Made by a program: the position numbers and the translations under genes
Source of the DNA: a virus
Reading direction: 5' to 3' (one strand)
IMG/VR virus record: IMGVR_UViG_3300005573_000005
DNA: 64,000 nucleotides
The notes under the pieces: model-generated
Seen by the model: the letters and a program-made list of their open reading frames with translations, nothing else
Told to the model about the DNA's origin: nothing
The model's database searches: none
In this document: in pieces, positions 11,348-35,718 of the stretch
How positions within the stretch are numbered: the stretch's first letter is position 1
Layout of the letters: every line of letters starts with the position of its first letter

Positions 11348-14212
11348 ATGAAATTTATAGTTTTCAGTGATTTACATGCTTCGGGTTTTAACTACTACAA
11401 GGCTTTAAACTATTCGCATCAGTTGTCTTGTGTGTATCATACTCTTATTTGGATAGCTGAATTGTGTAAAAAGAATAAACCAGATTTTGTAGTTTGTTGT
11501 GGCGATATTGTTAGTTCGAATTCTTATGTGGAAATACCTGTAAATAATGCTATTTTTGAAGGATTTTCTCAAATTGCTAAAGAAGTACCTGTTCATGTTG
11601 TGATGGGTAATCACGATTTAGATACTCGTACTAATGCTTCTTCTTATATAGAAGCTTTGAAAGAGATAAATAACGTTACTGTTTATACAGGAGTAAAAAG
11701 GGTTAGTATTAACAATAAAAATTTAATATTTGTTCCTTATACAGACGATTTTTCTATTATTCCTGAAGATTTGTTTAAGACTGCTTTTGATTATGCTTTT
11801 ATACATCTTCCTATACAAGGTGTTACTCTCGCTCCTGGTATTTTGGATGAAGGAATAGATCCTAAAAAATTTCTACTCTGGAATAGAGTCTTTGCTGGAC
11901 ATTATCATACTCCTCAAGATAACGCTTTAGGTTATAGTAATTTGTACTTTGTAGGGTCCGTTTTGTTCAGTAACTTTACTGAGAATTGTTTAACGGCTTT
12001 TGATAGAGGAGTAATTATTTGTGATAATGATTCTGTTATAAGATTGCCTAATCCTTTTACGCCGTTTTATACTACAGTTAGAAATAAAGAGGAACTTCTT
12101 TCTTATAAAAGAGATAAGAAGAGAACATTTCTCAGGATAAGTTTTGAGCCTGATGGCTTAGATTTATCCGAGTTTCTTAGGGTTTATACTATTAAGGCAG
12201 GGAAGGTAGAAAATGTGGCACGTACTAATTTATCTGTAAATACTGACCCTGCTGTTGCTGTAAAAGAGTATGGTAAGTTTAAGAATTTTTCAGATGATGT
12301 TATAGAATCAGGAATTCAAATATTAGATTCTGTAAAAGAAGATTTTAAAGTAAAGACTGTTCCTGTTTTTCATCGTTTTAATAAATTATATGTCCGTAAT
12401 TTTTTGTGTGTTTCTGAGATAACTCTTGATTTGAGTAATTTAGGTTCTGTTTTGGTAGAAGGTATTAACAAAGATGAGACCTGTTCTATTTCCTCAGGTG
12501 CAGGCAAATCAGCTTCTTTTGTTGAACCTATTTTATGGTGTCTTTTTGACAGGACTGTAAGAGGTGTTAAAAAAGATGCTGTAATTAATGAAAAAGCTGG
12601 TAAGGATTGTATTGTGCATCTGCAATTTACTTCGGGGAATAAAATTTATGATGTGGTAAGGTATAGGAAGCTGGATGGTTATAAAGTCTATGACAGGCTT
12701 TTAACAGATACAGGTATAAATATTTTTGAGAATGGTGTAGATATTTCTAAGAAAAAAGCATTAGATACGGATGCTTTAATTAGTTCTATAATAGGTTTAT
12801 CCTGGGAAGCTTTTGTTTCTCTTATTCTTATAGGAAGTGCGTCGCAGGGAAATTTTGTAACGTTTTCCAGTTTAGGACCGTTTGATAGAATCCTCTTTCT
12901 TGAGAGTTTTTTGCCTTGGCTTGAGATTTATGCTAAAGCTTATCAAAAAGCCTTGGATTTGTCTAACGATTTATCGAGTGAAGAAAATTCTTTAAATAGC
13001 AGTCTTGCTGTTTTAGATGAGAGAATTAAAGAGAAACAGAGTAAAATTTCTTCTTTTGAGCAAGAATCGAAAACATTTGAACTTTCAAGAGCTTCTAAGC
13101 TATCTGAAATAGACCAGAAGATTACAGCTTTAAAATCTAAGTTAGAAACGGTTGTCCTTGCTTTGAAGGAGAATAGAGAGAAGCTTTCTATTGTAGAATC
13201 TAAGGTGGAAGAACCTACAGATAAGTCTGCTGAAATTTCGGAACTTAATTCAATTATCAATATCAATGAAATAGAAAAGTCTAAACTGAAGAAAATGATT
13301 TCTAATGTAGCTAACGTTGTTTGTGATAAGTGTGGGCAACCTATTTCAGATGATTATAGAAATAAAGTGGTTGAAGAAAGCAAGTTAAAGATTTTAGAAC
13401 TCGATAATAGTATACTTATTGCTAAAAAGTCTCTTGAAGAAATTCTTAAGAAGAAGTCTGAGGAAGAAACAAGGTATAGGCAATGTCAGTCGCTTCTTAA
13501 TGAATTACAACATAAAATTTCTTCTTTAGATACAGATGAAAAACTTCTGAAGAGAGAATTAGAAATTCTACAGAGTTCTAAAATTGAAGTAGAGCAAAGT
13601 GAGAACCGTTATCTCTCTTTGATTGAGAAAGAGAAGACTGAACTCTTAAAGGCTGAGAAAGATTTTCAAGAATTGCAGAAGAAGCTTCAAGATTGTCTGA
13701 CAAGGAAGGAAAAGGTTTCGTTATGGGTACAAGGATTTTCACCTTCTGGTGTTCGTTCTTACATTCTTGACAGTGTATTGAATTTTATTAACGAACGTCT
13801 TAGTTTTTATTCTTCTCAGATTTTTGAGGATAATGTACTGGTTAAGTTTGTACCTTCTATTATTGGTAATAAAACTTCTATAGAAATCTTTTTAAGTTCT
13901 GCTAATTTCAAGAATCGTGTGTATTCTAATTGTTCTGGAGGAGAGAAACGTAGAGCAGATATTTCTATTGCATTAGCTATTCGTGATTTTGTGCAATCTT
14001 ATACAAATTCTAACTGTAATATTTTAATTGCTGATGAAATAATAGATTCGTTAGATAAGCGTTCAAGTTCTTTTGTTCTTACTTGTTTGAAAAGTGTTGC
14101 AGATAATGTATTTGTCATTTCTCATTCTCCAGATGTGAAAGGTCTACTCGATTCTGTAATAACTGTAGTTAAACAGAATGGTCAAACTACAATAGCTAAA
14201 GGAGGAATGTAA
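11348..14212 (+). CDS. fused SbcD/Mre11-like nuclease and SbcC/Rad50-like ATPase (T4 gp47+gp46 equivalents in one polypeptide)
   Basis: N-terminal phosphoesterase motifs: FSDLHAS, CCGDIVS, MGNHD, GHYH. Then Walker A SSGAGKSAS, a long coiled coil with a CxxC hook (VCDKCGQP), the ABC signature CSGGEKRRADISIALA, Walker B ILIADEIIDSLD and VFVISH. Confidence 0.8.
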   Translation: MKFIVFSDLHASGFNYYKALNYSHQLSCVYHTLIWIAELCKKNKPDFVVCCGDIVSSNSYVEIPVNNAIFEGFSQIAKEVPVHVVMGNHDLDTRTNASSYIEALKEINNVTVYTGVKRVSINNKNLIFVPYTDDFSIIPEDLFKTAFDYAFIHLPIQGVTLAPGILDEGIDPKKFLLWNRVFAGHYHTPQDNALGYSNLYFVGSVLFSNFTENCLTAFDRGVIICDNDSVIRLPNPFTPFYTTVRNKEELLSYKRDKKRTFLRISFEPDGLDLSEFLRVYTIKAGKVENVARTNLSVNTDPAVAVKEYGKFKNFSDDVIESGIQILDSVKEDFKVKTVPVFHRFNKLYVRNFLCVSEITLDLSNLGSVLVEGINKDETCSISSGAGKSASFVEPILWCLFDRTVRGVKKDAVINEKAGKDCIVHLQFTSGNKIYDVVRYRKLDGYKVYDRLLTDTGINIFENGVDISKKKALDTDALISSIIGLSWEAFVSLILIGSASQGNFVTFSSLGPFDRILFLESFLPWLEIYAKAYQKALDLSNDLSSEENSLNSSLAVLDERIKEKQSKISSFEQESKTFELSRASKLSEIDQKITALKSKLETVVLALKENREKLSIVESKVEEPTDKSAEISELNSIININEIEKSKLKKMISNVANVVCDKCGQPISDDYRNKVVEESKLKILELDNSILIAKKSLEEILKKKSEEETRYRQCQSLLNELQHKISSLDTDEKLLKRELEILQSSKIEVEQSENRYLSLIEKEKTELLKAEKDFQELQKKLQDCLTRKEKVSLWVQGFSPSGVRSYILDSVLNFINERLSFYSSQIFEDNVLVKFVPSIIGNKTSIEIFLSSANFKNRVYSNCSGGEKRRADISIALAIRDFVQSYTNSNCNILIADEIIDSLDKRSSSFVLTCLKSVADNVFVISHSPDVKGLLDSVITVVKQNGQTTIAKGGM

Positions 14213-30382: not shown

Positions 30383-31209
30383 ATCTAATGAATGTTTATT
30401 ATGTAGGGATGTTTGGTTATCTTTCAGAAGAAGAAAAGAAAGAAGATTTGAAGAATATAGATAAACGAAAATTCAAAGTTTTGAAACCAGAGAGTACTTC
30501 AGGCTTGTTTATTTATATTTATTTAGGTTCAGATCCTATGGCAGCAAGGGATAAATTTGATGAACTAAAACGTTTATTGACAGGAGCTATTTCGGCAGAT
30601 TTACTTGTGCGTCCCTCTTTATTTCCTGTGAAGGATTCTAAGAAGCTTGGTGGTGTTTTCTATCAGGATAGGATAGAGGATATTTCAAATTTTGAACAAA
30701 CAAAAATGGAAATGATGGAAAATGTGGAAGACATAGAAGAGGTAGTCAAAAAGATAGAGGATGTGCTTACCTATTACAAAAAAGATGTGGGGCATTCTAT
30801 CAATATCACACGGAAAGAAATCATCAAAATTCTCACTTCTTCTCCAACAAAATGGGAAGAGTTTGTAGAGAAAGAAATGTGGGGTTTTGAAAAAGAATGC
30901 GACGAAGAAGATTTGAAATATGTCAGTCCTTCACGCAAAACTGGAGTATATGTGCTAGATGGAAGGGACATTTTTTGGCACGTCATTTCACCAGATGTGG
31001 GAATGGTGATAGAAGAGCTTTCCGATGGTATCGTCATCTATATTAATGAAAAACTCTACAAGGTTGACGACTATGGATGGATATACTGGGTGATGAAAAA
31101 AGACAAAAATAAGGAGTTCTATTGGGCTGTCCGAGGATACGGTACATTTGAAAGGGCGAAACGAGAAGCTCTTCGGATAGAAAGAAGTTTTGTAAAAGCT
31201 AAAGATTAG
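30379..31209 (+). CDS. hypothetical protein
   Basis: 276-aa ORF that overlaps the upstream stop. Acidic. Confidence 0.45.
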   Translation: MNLMNVYYVGMFGYLSEEEKKEDLKNIDKRKFKVLKPESTSGLFIYIYLGSDPMAARDKFDELKRLLTGAISADLLVRPSLFPVKDSKKLGGVFYQDRIEDISNFEQTKMEMMENVEDIEEVVKKIEDVLTYYKKDVGHSINITRKEIIKILTSSPTKWEEFVEKEMWGFEKECDEEDLKYVSPSRKTGVYVLDGRDIFWHVISPDVGMVIEELSDGIVIYINEKLYKVDDYGWIYWVMKKDKNKEFYWAVRGYGTFERAKREALRIERSFVKAKD

Positions 31210-31266
31210 TATTAAGATTACAAAAAGTTGATGTTATAATAGTACTTAACAAGTAAGGAGGTTATT

Positions 31267-31785
31267 ATGATAACAGAAAATCAAAAGAAAGAATTGTTAA
31301 AGCATATACAAGATAAAGTTTATTCTCGATATTCCGATTGGGAACTTTATATGAAAGCCTGGAAAGAACATAATGATAATTTTCGTACAGAGGTATGGTT
31401 TGATTTTGATGCTGATGATATAGTGATCATACCAGGGCTTTCTACAGGTACGTATTCAAAAAGAAATGGTGTGATTTTGTTCACAATTGAGCAGAATACT
31501 ATGGCAAATTCTACATGGAAGGAGGAAGATGTACTATGGGATTATGAAATAGAAGAGCTAGAAAAAATGCGTGAAGAGGATTATGTAGATCTGGATGATT
31601 TTTGTAAAATGAAAGGTATAAATTTGAAGCGTCGTATAGGGGAATTTGAGGCTGATTTCTTTAAAATAGATTGGGACAAAGTGGAATATCAATTATCTGA
31701 GGAGGGTTTAACAGAGTCAGAACAAGTTTCGGTTAAACGTTTTATTATAGATAAACTTTTTGAAAAATGTGCGAAAAGAAAGTAA
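31267..31785 (+). CDS. hypothetical protein ending in the KRFIIDKLFE tag
   Basis: Strong RBS (aaggagg). The C terminus is ..EQVSVKRFIIDKLFEKCAKRK. Confidence 0.5.
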   Translation: MITENQKKELLKHIQDKVYSRYSDWELYMKAWKEHNDNFRTEVWFDFDADDIVIIPGLSTGTYSKRNGVILFTIEQNTMANSTWKEEDVLWDYEIEELEKMREEDYVDLDDFCKMKGINLKRRIGEFEADFFKIDWDKVEYQLSEEGLTESEQVSVKRFIIDKLFEKCAKRK

Positions 31786-31809
31786 AGAGATAGAAAGGAT
31801 TTGTATAAC

Positions 31810-32826
31810 ATGTCTGAAAAGTGTACTATATTAGATAAGTCGTTTGAAGTTGTAAGAGGAGTTCCTGGTTCTCGTGAATTTCCCACAATAGTGTCTTACG
31901 TAGATTTTTTAAACAGTGTAGGAGCAAAAGCTACTTTACGTAACGGTAAAATTGATGTAGAAAGGAGTATTTTGCCTGCGTTTGTTTATATTCAGAATGG
32001 TAAGATAGCTTATCCGTTTGGTTGTGTAAAGGGTGCTTTTGTATTGGATTACATTTCTTCTCTTCGCTCTTTGGAGAACTGTCCTGAATATGTAGGTGGT
32101 TTTTTCTCTTGTACAGATACGCAAATTACTTCTCTTCAAGGCGCTCCTGAGCATGTAGGTGAGGATTTCGATTGTTCTTATTGTAAAAATCTGAAATCTC
32201 TAAAAGGTGCTCCGAAGTACGTAGGCAGAGATTTTAATTGTTTACGTTGTGAGAATCTTACATCTCTTGAAGGAGCTCCTGAGTATGTAGGCAGAAATTT
32301 TAACTGTTTTCGTTGTGAGAATCTTTTATCCCTGAAAGGAGCTCCAAAATGTGTAGGTGGATCTTTTTATATTTTGGCTTGTTTTCAGTTGATATTTTTG
32401 GAAGGAGCTCCCGACTATGTAAGTGGAGATTTTAATTGTTCTTATTGCTATAATCTTACATCTTTGGCGGGTGCTCCGAAGTATGTAGGCAGAAATTTCA
32501 ACTGTTTTCGTTGCGAGAATCTTAAATCTCTCGAAGGAGCTCCCGAATATGTAGGCAGAGATTTTAATTGTTTACGTTGTGAGAATCTTAAATCTCTTGA
32601 AGGTGCTCCTGAGCATGTGGGCAGAAATTTCGATTGTTCGGAGTGTGTAAAGTTGATTTCTCTGGAGGGCGTTCCTGAGTATATAGGCGGAGATTTTGAT
32701 TGTTCTAAATGTGAAAAGTTAACATCTTTGGAAGGCTTAAATATTGTGAAAGGTAAAATTTATGCTAAGGAAATACCTATAAAAGATTTAGCTGGTTTTC
32801 CAGAAAATAAAGTTGTTTTAAAGTAG
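31810..32826 (+). CDS. Cys-containing 22-residue LRR-like repeat protein, paralog 1 (degenerate N-terminal tag MSEKCTILDKSFE)
   Basis: Pre-repeat module (SREFPTIVSYVDFLNSVGAKATLRNGKIDVE..). About 11 units of L.GAPEYVG.DF.C..C.NL.S. Conserved cap LNIVKGKIYAKEIPIKDLAGFPENKVVLK. Confidence 0.7.
   Translation: MSEKCTILDKSFEVVRGVPGSREFPTIVSYVDFLNSVGAKATLRNGKIDVERSILPAFVYIQNGKIAYPFGCVKGAFVLDYISSLRSLENCPEYVGGFFSCTDTQITSLQGAPEHVGEDFDCSYCKNLKSLKGAPKYVGRDFNCLRCENLTSLEGAPEYVGRNFNCFRCENLLSLKGAPKCVGGSFYILACFQLIFLEGAPDYVSGDFNCSYCYNLTSLAGAPKYVGRNFNCFRCENLKSLEGAPEYVGRDFNCLRCENLKSLEGAPEHVGRNFDCSECVKLISLEGVPEYIGGDFDCSKCEKLTSLEGLNIVKGKIYAKEIPIKDLAGFPENKVVLK
32401..32524 (+). repeat. 124-bp tract identical, bar 1 mismatch, to 41425..41548 in paralog 3
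   Basis: Base-by-base comparison shows the only difference is aaatttCa versus aaatttTa. The flanking repeat units are clearly more diverged by eye. Confidence 0.9.
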
Positions 32827-32850
32827 GTCTTTTCAATAAAAGGAGTTAAT

Positions 32851-33783
32851 ATGAAACCTGATGCTGAAATTTTGCTTGGTAAAGATTATCCTATAATACC
32901 TCGTTACAAGAAAACAATTATTTTATGTTTACCTGTTTATTTAGATACTTCTATAGCTAACAATATCTGGATGAAGAAACTGGAGAAAAAAGGTCAGATA
33001 AAAGTTGACCGTAGTAAAATGTTTTTACAATTTCTTGAGTTTTATTCTTATATAGCCTCTCTTGCTATAGTTTATCTTCAGCCACCTAAGAAGGGTTTAC
33101 AGGATCAAGTTTATATAACAAATGCAGCAGTTCGTTTGCCTCATTTGCCAGATGTTTTTGTTTTATCTAAGTTTAAGGCAGAAGGACGTCAAGGTGAAGA
33201 ACAGGAAGTTAAACCTTTATTAAACGCTTTAGGTTATAGAACTATACAATGTCCTTATTTCTTTGAAGGAGAAGCTGAATTAAAATGGATTGATAAGAAT
33301 GTTTATATAGGAGGTTATGGAATACGTACTTCTTTGGAAGCTCTTAAATGGATAGCTAAGAATTTTGATGCTGTTATTATTCCTTTAAAAGAACAAGATG
33401 AATTTCTTTATCATCTTGATTGCCATGTTTTTCCTATAACTAACGATCATGTTCTTGTTTATACAGGAGATAAACCAGATACTTCCATAAAGGCTATAGA
33501 AAAATATGCTAATGTGATACCTGTAAACAAAGCGTGTGCTTATGCAGGTATTACAAATAGTGTCAGGGTTGGTACAATTGTATTTAATGCAACTAATATA
33601 AATGAGCTTAAACGGGATGATGAAGACTTTGCGAAAGAGAAAGAGAAGAATGAAACTCTTGAGAAGATTTGTAGGGAGCTTGGTCTTGAATTGGTATTTT
33701 TCAATATGAGTGAATTTCTTAAATCTGGTGCTTTATTGTCATGTTGCGTACTTCATGTTGTTCATGATAAAATCTATACATAA
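32851..33783 (+). CDS. guanidino-group-modifying enzyme superfamily protein (DDAH / amidinotransferase / deiminase fold)
   Basis: GGYGIRTSLEALKWIAKNF, LYHLDCHVFPI (His-Leu-Asp) and a C-terminal SGALLSCCVLHV. The last resembles the catalytic-Cys segment of DDAH as I recall it (DGLLTCCSVLI). Confidence 0.5.
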   Translation: MKPDAEILLGKDYPIIPRYKKTIILCLPVYLDTSIANNIWMKKLEKKGQIKVDRSKMFLQFLEFYSYIASLAIVYLQPPKKGLQDQVYITNAAVRLPHLPDVFVLSKFKAEGRQGEEQEVKPLLNALGYRTIQCPYFFEGEAELKWIDKNVYIGGYGIRTSLEALKWIAKNFDAVIIPLKEQDEFLYHLDCHVFPITNDHVLVYTGDKPDTSIKAIEKYANVIPVNKACAYAGITNSVRVGTIVFNATNINELKRDDEDFAKEKEKNETLEKICRELGLELVFFNMSEFLKSGALLSCCVLHVVHDKIYT

Positions 33784-33803
33784 AAGAGAAAGGAGATATT
33801 CAA

Positions 33804-34013
33804 ATGCCTCCACCTAACTTAAAGCATTGTGTTCAAAAAGTTATGAGAAAAGGTTGGTCAAAACCAAGAGCGTATGCAATTTGTGTTTCTTCTACTGGCT
33901 GGAGACGAGCTCCTGGTAAGAAATGGGTAAAAGATGGTAAAGTCTGGAAGAAGCCTACAAGTGAATCTGTGAAGACTTTTATTATTGATAAATTATTTGA
34001 ATCTGTGTTATGA
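33804..34013 (+). CDS. small basic protein ending in the KTFIIDKLFE tag
   Basis: Strong RBS (aaaggag). MPPPNLKHCVQKVMRKGWSKPRAYAIC... The C terminus is ..SESVKTFIIDKLFESVL. Confidence 0.5.
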   Translation: MPPPNLKHCVQKVMRKGWSKPRAYAICVSSTGWRRAPGKKWVKDGKVWKKPTSESVKTFIIDKLFESVL

Positions 34014-34729
34014 TGCATGTTTATAAATGGTTAGAAACACCTGAGATAAAGAAGTTGCGAGAAGGTTCTCTATCGGACTTGCTGTATAAAGAGTTCTTTA
34101 GAGATCCTATGCGACCTGTTTATTTTAGCAGTTCTTGTTTTCTTTCACCTGCTGATGGTACAATTCTTTATGCAGGTGTATATAAGCCTGACGAAGAAGT
34201 TTTATCTGTTAAAGGTACAAAGCTTTCAGCCAAGAAATTATTACAGGATGACTCTTATGATAAAACCAGTATAATTATAGGTATTTTTATGTGTGCTCTT
34301 GATGTTCATATAAATCGTGTACCTTTGAGTGGTATGCTCCGATTCAGGAAAGCTGAGTCTATTCAAGCTACGAATAGAACTATGATAGGAGTGGAAAAAG
34401 ATATTCTTTTAAAGTTAGGTGTTAATCCTAAAAATTTGCTTTATGCTGCTACTAATGAAAGGGTAATAAACGAATTTGTAAGTCCTTATTATGGTAAGTA
34501 TTTTGTTGTACAGATTGCGGATACGGATGTTAAAGTTATTTCTCATTTTGTTGATAATGGTAGTTTTGTTCAGCAAGGAGACAGATTTTCTTTTGTACGG
34601 TGGGGAAGTCAAGTAGATCTTATAATACCAGTACGAGAAGAGTGCGTTTATGTTTTACATACAAAACCCTATCTACACGTTGAAGGCGGAAAAGATAAAT
34701 TATTATCTTTTTCTTTTAAGGAGGATTAA
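34010..34729 (+). CDS. phosphatidylserine decarboxylase-like pyruvoyl-dependent decarboxylase
   Basis: FLSPADGTILYAG, DVHINRVPLSGML, NERV, and FSFVRWGSQVDLIIP (a G-S self-cleavage site in the position of the LGST motif). Confidence 0.6.
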   Translation: MMHVYKWLETPEIKKLREGSLSDLLYKEFFRDPMRPVYFSSSCFLSPADGTILYAGVYKPDEEVLSVKGTKLSAKKLLQDDSYDKTSIIIGIFMCALDVHINRVPLSGMLRFRKAESIQATNRTMIGVEKDILLKLGVNPKNLLYAATNERVINEFVSPYYGKYFVVQIADTDVKVISHFVDNGSFVQQGDRFSFVRWGSQVDLIIPVREECVYVLHTKPYLHVEGGKDKLLSFSFKED

Positions 34730-34731
34730 AA

Positions 34732-35172
34732 ATGCACGATAGTTTCGTAGACAAATTATTTACAACTTTTGCGAGAGTAAAGGAGCTTAAGGAAGAAAGT
34801 GAAAAAGAAAAAAAAGATGTTGAAAAAGAAGTTCCTGTAGAGATTACTAAAGATACAGCAGAACTTCCTTCTCCTGAAATACCTACTGAAATTGAGCATA
34901 CTTGTCCTGATTGTGGTGAAGAAATGGAGTTAATTCCAGATTATAAATATGTTTGTCCTTCTTGCGGTTATGCTGTTCCTTATGAGGATGCAGAAGAAGA
35001 AATTCCTGAGGAACCTTCAGTAGCTCCTGCTGTAGCTGATAAAAAAACTACGGACGAAGAGGAACCTGAAGGTGCTGAAAAGCCTGAGAAAGTTTCACTG
35101 AAGGTTGATATTAAGACAGATGACGAGGAAGAAGGAGAACCTGTTAAAGTGACCGTTTCAGGAGAGAAGTAA
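34732..35172 (+). CDS. acidic protein with a zinc ribbon
   Basis: CPDCGEEMELIPDYKYVCPSCGY flanked by E/K/P-rich low-complexity sequence. Confidence 0.45.
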   Translation: MHDSFVDKLFTTFARVKELKEESEKEKKDVEKEVPVEITKDTAELPSPEIPTEIEHTCPDCGEEMELIPDYKYVCPSCGYAVPYEDAEEEIPEEPSVAPAVADKKTTDEEEPEGAEKPEKVSLKVDIKTDDEEEGEPVKVTVSGEK

Positions 35173-35175
35173 ATA

Positions 35176-35718
35176 ATGCTTATTTTTGTGAAACAGTTAG
35201 AGAAGGACTCTGTTGTTCTGCATATTATTTTAGGGAAAGAGTCCTATTTTATGTTTGAGTGTTTTGGTTTTATAGCGGAGGAAATTACTTCGCTAATTAG
35301 TGATTTGGTTAAAGAAGGTAAAAGGATTTACTTACATATTGTTAATAACGATGTAAGCGAGTACGAGTTATGGAAAAAGCTTACTATGCTTGGAATTCCT
35401 GTATTGGTACATAATATTGTCAAAGTGGAAAAAAGGGAAACAGGCGAAACTCGTGAAGTTTTTCCTGTAGAAGATGTTAGTTCGGTCTTGCAAGAAGATA
35501 TTAAAGAGAAGAGTACAAAAGAAGCAAAAGAAGTGCAGAAGGAGCTTCAGAAAATGCACAACAAGTCTGCTACTGAGTGTTTTTATTGTGGTGGTACAGC
35601 TGATATTATACCTGGAACGTTTCCAGTTATGTGTAAGAGTTGTTTTGAGTTAAACATAGGGCTTTCTGCGGGTATGAGAAAGACTAAGAGAAAGAAAGCT
35701 TCCCATGATAAAGACTGA
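35176..35718 (+). CDS. hypothetical protein with a C-terminal zinc ribbon
   Basis: CFYCGGTADIIPGTFPVMCKSC followed by a basic tail. Confidence 0.45.
   Translation: MLIFVKQLEKDSVVLHIILGKESYFMFECFGFIAEEITSLISDLVKEGKRIYLHIVNNDVSEYELWKKLTMLGIPVLVHNIVKVEKRETGETREVFPVEDVSSVLQEDIKEKSTKEAKEVQKELQKMHNKSATECFYCGGTADIIPGTFPVMCKSCFELNIGLSAGMRKTKRKKASHDKD

Follow-up and report, generated by a model that had tools for sequence, protein, structure and literature searches.

Why should a phage carry, almost side by side, an enzyme that acts on guanidino groups and a protein that resembles a phosphatidylserine decarboxylase (PSD), and what might the two make together? This question is raised by positions 32,851 to 34,729 of a 64,000-nucleotide stretch of the IMG/VR virus record IMGVR_UViG_3300005573_000005 (the whole stretch is called the window from here on). 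The window belongs to a T4-like phage, recognizable by its DNA polymerase, a fused SbcD-SbcC nuclease, a portal protein, a prohead protease (phrog_207) and a gp23-like capsid protein (phrog_138). A first-pass annotation had described at this locus a guanidino-modifying enzyme (GME) and a short PSD-like protein, separated by a basic open reading frame (ORF) of 69 amino acids (aa) that carries an IIDKLFE tag, and all three ORFs were indeed found there:

32851-33783, plus strand: GME gene, 310 aa, with Y-H188-L-D190 and, near the C terminus, SGALLSC298C.
33804-34013, plus strand: ORF69, 69 aa, pI 10.35, 16 Lys + Arg residues, ending in FIIDKLFESVL.
34010-34729, plus strand: PSD-like gene, 239 aa, with the cleavage-site context VRWG199-S200-QVDL.

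Three uses had been offered for the two enzymes, namely polyamine synthesis, phosphatidylethanolamine (PE) synthesis and DNA hypermodification. We favor the first, and propose tentatively, with a confidence that stays somewhat short of an even chance, that the pair turns arginine via ornithine into putrescine and in this way supplies polyamine. Which substrates are used, which step comes first and how the phage benefits is what we infer from the family, structure and context evidence described below.

The first part of the answer is that the two genes belong together, since GME and PSD-like make up a conserved two-gene module in phages and bacteria. A pattern and tblastn scan with an alignment of PSD-like proteins recovered 226 relatives in IMG/VR and 365 in species-representative genomes, and a partner search with a hidden Markov model (HMM) of the GME clade gave 80 viral (IMG/VR) and 79 cellular loci. 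GME adjoins PSD-like in 78 of these 80 viral loci, in the order GME–PSD-like and with a gap of 0–6 bp, the two exceptions being loci cut off upstream. The same adjacency was found in 69 of the 79 cellular loci, mostly in reversed order with respect to the viral ones. Compared with the related viral loci, only the window has the two enzyme genes split, by a 227-bp interval containing ORF69. Among isolated phages, the PSD-like gene is present in 45 of the 48 records that carry GME, and both genes appear in all the Campylobacter Fletchervirus records found and in six Bacteroides phages (DAC/SJC). They are adjacent in phage DAC19, and ~43 kb separate them in the Fletchervirus NCTC12673, where their neighbors are replication and tail genes. 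In this last Campylobacter phage, the gene of a Hef-type homing endonuclease overlaps the 3′ end of the PSD-like gene (L168:3932-6116), and a GenBank note likens the NCTC12673 protein to AF210249_12, presumably an entry from the bleomycin gene cluster.

In a FastTree phylogeny of the PSD-like proteins, a phage clade is split from the cellular clade with 97% local support. It comprises the window, Fletchervirus, the locus L002, IMG/VR contigs and a few viral-looking contigs of metagenome-assembled genomes (MAGs). The branch leading to the window is long, which leaves its exact neighbors in the tree unsure. Four nominally cellular MAG contigs, L007 (Flavobacteriales), L010, L061 and L072, also fall inside the phage clade, one of them (L007) being nearly identical to the IMG/VR contig L139, and they are probably phage contigs binned into MAGs.

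What, then, does the first enzyme act upon? From its HLD motif and a C-terminal Cys, GME had been placed in the superfamily of DDAH, amidinotransferases and guanidino deiminases, and NCBIfam, the PDB and the predicted fold all agree with this. No Pfam family matched at E ≤ 0.1, hence neither PF04371 (agmatine deiminase) nor PF02274, two of the three families against which profile searches had been proposed (the third, PF02666, does match the decarboxylase, see below). With Pfam silent, the family assignment is carried by NCBIfam, the PDB match and the fold. The NCBIfam arginine dihydrolase model was matched at 9e-27 (93.9 bits, with a cut-off of 450), the bifunctional ArgZ model at 93.7 bits (cut-off 1025) and DDAH at 4e-23 (82 bits, cut-off 300), GME remaining in each case under the level that defines the equivalog. 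In PHROGs the protein belongs to phrog_12759 (3e-55), a group of unknown function. Against the PDB, the residue-by-residue alignment with ArgZ/AgrE has an E-value of 1e-19. The AlphaFold (AF2) model of GME (pLDDT 93.6) displays the five-fold pseudo-symmetric fold and is closest to ArgZ, with a Foldseek match to ArgZ/AgrE (E 2e-21; TM-score 0.78–0.79 by query and 0.89 by target; ~27% identity) that covers the N-terminal domain of ArgZ. DDAH is more remote (TM-score ~0.68, 14–16% identity), and much poorer structural matches than with ArgZ were obtained for the Campylobacter jejuni agmatine deiminase and for AGAT, SxtG and HsvA (10–12% identity). By sequence and by modeled structure, GME is thus closest to the arginine dihydrolases ArgZ/AgrE and distant from agmatine deiminase and the amidinotransferases.

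The active site points to the same substrate. In the PDB-match alignment, GME residues N38, D85, N91, R113, E139, R159, H188, D190 and C298 stand opposite AgrE N22, D65, N71, R90, E118, R139, H168, D170 and C264, respectively, and at all nine positions conservation within the clade is complete or reaches at least 90%. The alignment of 64 GME homologs shows no variation at H188, D190, C298 and E139, and N91 is kept in at least 90% of the sequences. The catalytic set of the arginine dihydrolases, Cys264/His168/Glu118 plus Asn71, is therefore present as C298/H188/E139/N91. The title of PDB entry 6JUZ, "ArgZ(N71S) covalently bond to a reaction intermediate," marks ArgZ N71, the counterpart of GME N91, as mechanistically important and required for the reaction to run to its end. 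Conserved as well are N38, D85, R113 and R159, which align with AgrE N22, D65, R90 and R139. We assume, from the structures of ArgZ and DDAH, that the two arginines (AgrE R90 and R139) hold the alpha-carboxylate of the substrate and that D65 holds its alpha-amino group. With its single domain GME has the size of a hydrolase. We would accordingly name it a putative arginine dihydrolase, predicted to convert L-arginine into L-ornithine, CO2 and 2 NH3. The chlorovirus scheme that runs from arginine through agmatine and carbamoylputrescine, with which the polyamine idea had originally been illustrated, is not the best match for an ArgZ-type enzyme that has no hit to PF04371 or PF02274 and keeps the residues presumed to bind a free amino acid, although the polyamine idea itself is, of the three, the one that we retain.

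The second enzyme was expected to be a short protein of the PSD type with a self-processing Gly-Ser site, and this description stands. PF02666 is matched at 6.7e-29 (101.4 bits, gathering cut-off 22, residues 28–209) and the processing residues are conserved. The protein nevertheless remains under the cut-offs of all 15 NCBIfam models of PSDs and archaetidylserine decarboxylases (best 85.3 bits vs. 183), the nearest ones being short-type PSD and the archaetidylserine decarboxylases, and it belongs to phrog_12670, again a group of unknown function. Its AF2 model (pLDDT 85.1, with a disordered lid at residues 121–147) retrieved with Foldseek E. coli PSD (3e-6), followed by the tryptophan decarboxylase PsiD (3e-4), and E. 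coli PSD is also its best PDB match. Autoprocessing of the E. coli enzyme involves Asp90/Asp142-His144-Ser254 (PMC7952604), and residues D49, D98, H100 and G199-S200 of the PSD-like protein align with these residues and with the Gly-Ser cleavage site. Among 64 aligned PSD-like sequences D49, H100, G199 and S200 are invariant, and the whole autoprocessing set is invariant or at least 90% conserved. Both family assignments have consequently held, together with the conservation of the catalytic Cys/His and Gly-Ser residues on which they had been made to depend. The sequence predicts a competent pyruvoyl proenzyme that would cleave itself between G199 and S200. One metagenomic homolog (P0241) is much longer, with 590 aa, owing to an intein-like insert of ~345 aa that starts with C-Y-S-D-D-T-E-V-F-T-D-N-G and ends in S-S-N, followed by S-A-L-D-V-H; its site corresponds to C95 of the window protein, four residues ahead of the catalytic His.

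Is this then a true phosphatidylserine decarboxylase that raises the PE content of the host cell, GME being an unrelated passenger? The label is the one used by GenBank and by the ocean catalog of auxiliary metabolic genes (AMGs), and it is consistent with the PF02666 match, the intact processing site, the nearest NCBIfam models and E. coli PSD as the top PDB match. We consider it very improbable all the same, and not only for the equivalog cut-offs, all of which were missed. In E. coli PSD, Tyr137 binds the phosphate and carboxyl groups of phosphatidylserine (PMC7952604), whereas a Phe (Phe93), invariant in the clade, stands at this position. The E. coli enzyme has an N-terminal amphipathic helical membrane anchor and a hydrophobic surface for the acyl chains, and it needs these chains for substrate binding (PMC7952604). 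The PSD-like protein has only ~25 polar residues (~32% charged) ahead of its FFRD motif, vs. ~62 residues in E. coli, so that the three-helix anchor has no counterpart, and no transmembrane segment was found in the clade, where 19-residue hydrophobicity windows remain below the transmembrane level (median 1.19). Besides, a canonical PSD is encoded elsewhere in five out of five module genomes tested, scoring 152–214 bits against 89–105 bits for the module copy, which indicates that the module decarboxylase is a diverged paralog. The near-obligate linkage to GME and the predicted complex (see below) are also difficult to reconcile with a lipid enzyme and its passenger, as are the bacterial operons with exporter, polyamine or arginine genes in which the pair is found. 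As far as its sequence tells, the PSD-like protein is a member of a soluble clade devoid of membrane anchor and not a typical PSD; we would rather predict an amino acid decarboxylase, with ornithine as its putative substrate.

Do the two enzymes work in physical contact? The prediction of a GME/PSD-like complex gave a score of 0.82, the best of three controls reaching 0.00. A value of 0.82 is attained by 58 of 80 solved complexes and by 2 of 110 mismatched pairs, counts that are only approximate here because custom alignments were used. The runs agreed in at least 94% of the contacts, with a partner pLDDT of at least 86, and place GME residues 267–285 (a clade-specific helix and strand) and 59–70 against PSD-like residues 34–41, with hydrophobic character kept at the core positions of the interface. 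No solved complex that combines these folds is known to us. In the light of the model, GME and PSD-like probably form a complex, and a direct hand-over of ornithine from one enzyme to the other may occur.

The genomic context of the module differs between viruses and cells. The main viral lineage shows the succession prohead protease, a scaffold-sized gene, gp23 capsid protein, GME, PSD-like and PhoH. In bacteria the pair is usually followed by an exporter, which at 57 cellular loci is of the MatE or ABC type and no more than 2.5 kb away, and the conserved order decarboxylase–dihydrolase–exporter suggests that an arginine-derived amine is secreted. Three operons of Hyphomicrobiales run in the order PSD-like, GME, a SpeE-like aminopropyltransferase (directly after the pair), an ABC exporter and ArgB, with an AguA-like gene nearby; AguA-like genes were found at nine cellular loci in all, and a pyridoxal phosphate-dependent decarboxylase of the AR fold at one. 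In Xenorhabdus an aldehyde dehydrogenase and a class-III aminotransferase are encoded in a divergent operon. Several of the actinomycete copies belong to what look like natural-product gene clusters (for these high-GC loci the context was derived from HMM and phmmer hits, as ORF calling is unreliable there). The one of Saccharothrix coeruleofusca (L004:1196-11679) comes after a GNAT protein, a fusion of AMP-ligase and aldehyde dehydrogenase, a thiamine pyrophosphate (TPP) enzyme and a ketosynthase, and that of Streptomyces stramineus (L076:9866-19612) is found beside a nonribosomal peptide synthetase of 2156 aa, with no detectable GME at this locus. A further family, c68 (L016:1322-2431 and L053:9297-10415), consists of proteins of ~370 aa without Pfam match that contain H-I-D and C-terminal H-C motifs; it is a remote relative with the GME fold and occupies the place of the partner beside PSD-like in L016, a KSB1 MAG.

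These last loci bring up a different product. The decarboxylase could form an amine from another amino acid while GME transfers the amidino group of arginine onto that amine, or trims some other guanidino amino acid, the resulting small amine or guanidino compound being secreted by bacteria. The exporters at the 57 cellular loci, the clusters of Saccharothrix (with ketosynthase, TPP enzyme, AMP-ligase-reductase and GNAT) and S. stramineus (with the peptide synthetase) and the replacement of GME by c68, which has the size of an amidinotransferase, would all be understandable in this case, and arginine bound as the amidino donor would account for the conserved amino acid-binding residues too. 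We find it a rather poor candidate, however. GME is far nearer to the hydrolases ArgZ and DDAH (TM-scores by query of 0.68–0.79) than to AGAT, SxtG or HsvA (10–12% identity), its 310 aa correspond to a hydrolase, and the neighbors are specifically polyamine or arginine genes (SpeE, ArgB, AguA-like).

A more serious competitor keeps polyamine as the product and inverts the steps. Decarboxylation would come first, PSD-like making agmatine from arginine, and GME would then take off an amidino group, its substrate being agmatine, N1-aminopropylagmatine or the product of a host or neighboring agmatine deiminase, with putrescine or spermidine as the end point. A PSD-fold arginine decarboxylase does exist, Ao-ADC1 of Aspergillus oryzae, and the AguA-like genes beside the module at nine cellular loci, together with the SpeE-like genes that follow it at three, are in keeping with this order. 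The known hosts C. jejuni and Bacteroides thetaiotaomicron, moreover, make putrescine via agmatine. We nonetheless judge it unlikely, if clearly ahead of the other alternatives. GME keeps D85, R113 and R159, whose equivalents in ArgZ and DDAH presumably hold the alpha-carboxylate and alpha-amino groups, both absent from agmatine; two enzymes competing for arginine would fit the predicted complex poorly; and neither Ao-ADC1 nor PsiD is among the PDB matches of the clade profile at E ≤ 1, so that any shift of the clade to arginine would have been an independent event.

A role in DNA modification, the last of the uses originally suggested, would have the decarboxylase act on an amino acid appended to a base and GME trim its guanidino group within a hypermodification pathway. 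Thymidine hypermodification pathways do include decarboxylation steps. It is also true that the Fletchervirus phages, all of which have both genes, possess an unusual DNA in which deoxyguanosine is replaced by deoxyinosine (PMC13091555). Still, bacteria have the same pair in ordinary operons, next to exporters and polyamine or arginine genes, the viral loci have no conserved DNA kinase, glycosylase or transferase as neighbor (the neighbors being gp23 and PhoH), and in Fletchervirus ~43 kb separate the two genes, which adjoin replication and tail genes. We regard this as the least probable of all the explanations considered, scarcely credible at present.

Coming back to the route from arginine through ornithine to putrescine, it is favored because GME retains the full ArgZ constellation, including the positions presumed to bind the alpha-amino acid moiety. 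As we picture it, GME would hydrolyze the guanidino group of free L-arginine to give L-ornithine, CO2 and 2 NH3, in the manner of ArgZ. The PSD-like protein, having cleaved itself at G199/S200 and so generated its pyruvoyl cofactor, would decarboxylate the ornithine, perhaps passed on directly within the complex, to putrescine. In bacteria this module is coupled to an exporter, and sometimes to a spermidine synthase, and in phages there is no exporter with it. Polyamines neutralize packaged DNA and support translation, and polyamine genes are already known in phages. The position of the module in the late head-gene block of the main T4-like lineage suggests that it would increase the polyamine available to DNA packaging and translation during infection. 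A more ambitious version is that the two proteins form a heteromeric substrate-channeling enzyme, representing an unrecognized ArgZ-type plus PSD-fold putrescine route that is widespread in bacteria, where it goes with export, and has been acquired by several phage lineages as a means of filling the infected cell, and possibly the capsid too, with polyamine. We put this forward as a possibility, with more doubt than the route itself.

Several observations weigh against the ornithine route. The NCBIfam scores of both proteins fall far short of the equivalog cut-offs (93.9 vs. 450 bits for GME and 85 vs. 183 for PSD-like), and neither can be taken as the ortholog of a characterized enzyme. The interface residues are not more conserved than the average of each protein, and a search for longer forms yielded no GME-PSD fusion, which is weak evidence. 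The nine loci with AguA-like genes point to agmatine, and decarboxylation may therefore come first, while the adjacent exporters agree with a secreted product, not necessarily putrescine. Finally, a census of polyamine genes in five module genomes, covering AR-fold and AAT-fold decarboxylases, AguA and agmatinase, did not separate the ornithine-first from the agmatine-first order.

The immediate surroundings of the pair in the window deserve some description. AGGAG-type ribosome-binding sites precede GME and ORF69, and the stop codon of ORF69 overlaps the start of the PSD-like gene in the sequence ATGA, these two genes being translationally coupled. ORF69 had no family match in Pfam, PHROGs or NCBIfam; the IIDKLFE at its C terminus is a portable tag, and the placement of ORF69, possibly a packaged DNA-binding protein, beside a putative polyamine module is suggestive. 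An acidic ORF of 172 aa located 5′ of the pair (31267-31785) has FIIDKLFE close to its C terminus, and just 3′ (34732-35172) there is an acidic zinc-ribbon protein of 146 aa that begins with MHDSFVDKLF, resembling the tag. With tag-like sequences both upstream and downstream, the enzyme pair appears to sit inside a series of tag-bearing genes. No terminator-like site was detected within 31000-35600, and a scan of the block for promoters and terminators gave no more sites than shuffled sequence. Farther away, a single ORF of 954 aa (11348-14212) joins an SbcD-like nuclease (residues 1–320) to an SbcC-like ATPase (343–951), that is, the functions of T4 gp47 and gp46 in one fused protein. A nucleotide search of phages returned no match to the window.

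A literature search pairing PSD with dihydrolase, polyamine or ornithine decarboxylase retrieved no description of this gene pair. The papers on polyamine metabolism in the virosphere (PMC9992855, PMC10407285) make no mention of PSD, dihydrolase or amidinotransferase, nor does the pair appear in a survey of arginine decarboxylase classes from September 2026. In the ocean AMG catalog, viral psd is assigned to PE synthesis and amidinotransferase to creatine synthesis, in both cases from the gene name only. If the channeling route were true, these viral "psd" and "amidinotransferase" auxiliary genes would have been mis-assigned to lipid and creatine metabolism, and the corresponding name-based annotations, in genome records as well as in AMG catalogs, would have to be corrected. 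It would also add a compact route built from two folds without earlier link to putrescine synthesis, and a third example of a PSD fold recruited to a free amino acid. The route would be shared by every Fletchervirus found here (phages that are candidates for biocontrol in food safety), by the Bacteroides gut phages recovered in this analysis and by hundreds of T4-like phages from the environment. Among the bacterial carriers there are natural-product-rich genera such as Xenorhabdus and those of the Pseudonocardiaceae.

How do these enzymes compare with the systems already known? GME shares its fold with ArgZ (Synechocystis Sll1336) and AgrE (Anabaena Alr4995), represented by PDB entries 6JUY-6JV1 and 6LRF-6LRH, and keeps their catalytic Cys, His and Glu, the Asn equivalent to N71 and all the positions aligned with the arginine-binding ones. 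It differs in lacking the C-terminal domain similar to ornithine cyclodeaminase and in having a clade-specific helix-strand insert (~250–288) that forms the predicted interface with the decarboxylase. In other words, the dihydrolase of AgrE is fused to a domain that consumes ornithine, whereas GME appears to be coupled to a separate pyruvoyl decarboxylase. The PSD-like protein in turn has the fold, the Asp/Asp-His-Ser system and the Gly-Ser site of E. coli PSD (PDB 6L06, 7CNW), of the short-type PSDs and of the archaetidylserine decarboxylases, and the same pyruvoyl chemistry is to be expected. It departs from the E. coli enzyme in its GSQ (instead of GST), in the Phe that replaces Tyr137 and in the absence of an amphipathic anchor domain or a hydrophobic acyl-binding surface, and from canonical PSDs in being a second cellular copy that is near-obligately paired with GME.

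A precedent for the PSD fold acting on free amino acids is given by Ao-ADC1 (PDB 9JER), which uses arginine, and the Psilocybe PsiD (PDB 8X4Q), which uses tryptophan. Unlike the PSD-like protein, both are fungal proteins of 439–483 aa with GGS(T/S) motifs and no GME partner, and the profile search at E ≤ 1 connects neither with the PSD-like clade, whose recruitment to a free amino acid would thus have happened independently. As for viruses, the purpose that we propose, a viral supply of putrescine or agmatine, is the one of the ADC, AIH, NCPAH and HSS enzymes of chloroviruses and of the pyruvoyl ornithine and arginine decarboxylases that phages have derived from SpeD (PMC9992855, PMC10407285). 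The latter (Li et al.) are another pyruvoyl family repurposed in a similar way. The folds are different, those of PSD and ArgZ being the ones employed here, and in contrast to the chlorovirus route the one proposed for this module would proceed via ornithine, with neither agmatine deiminase nor NCPAH taking part.

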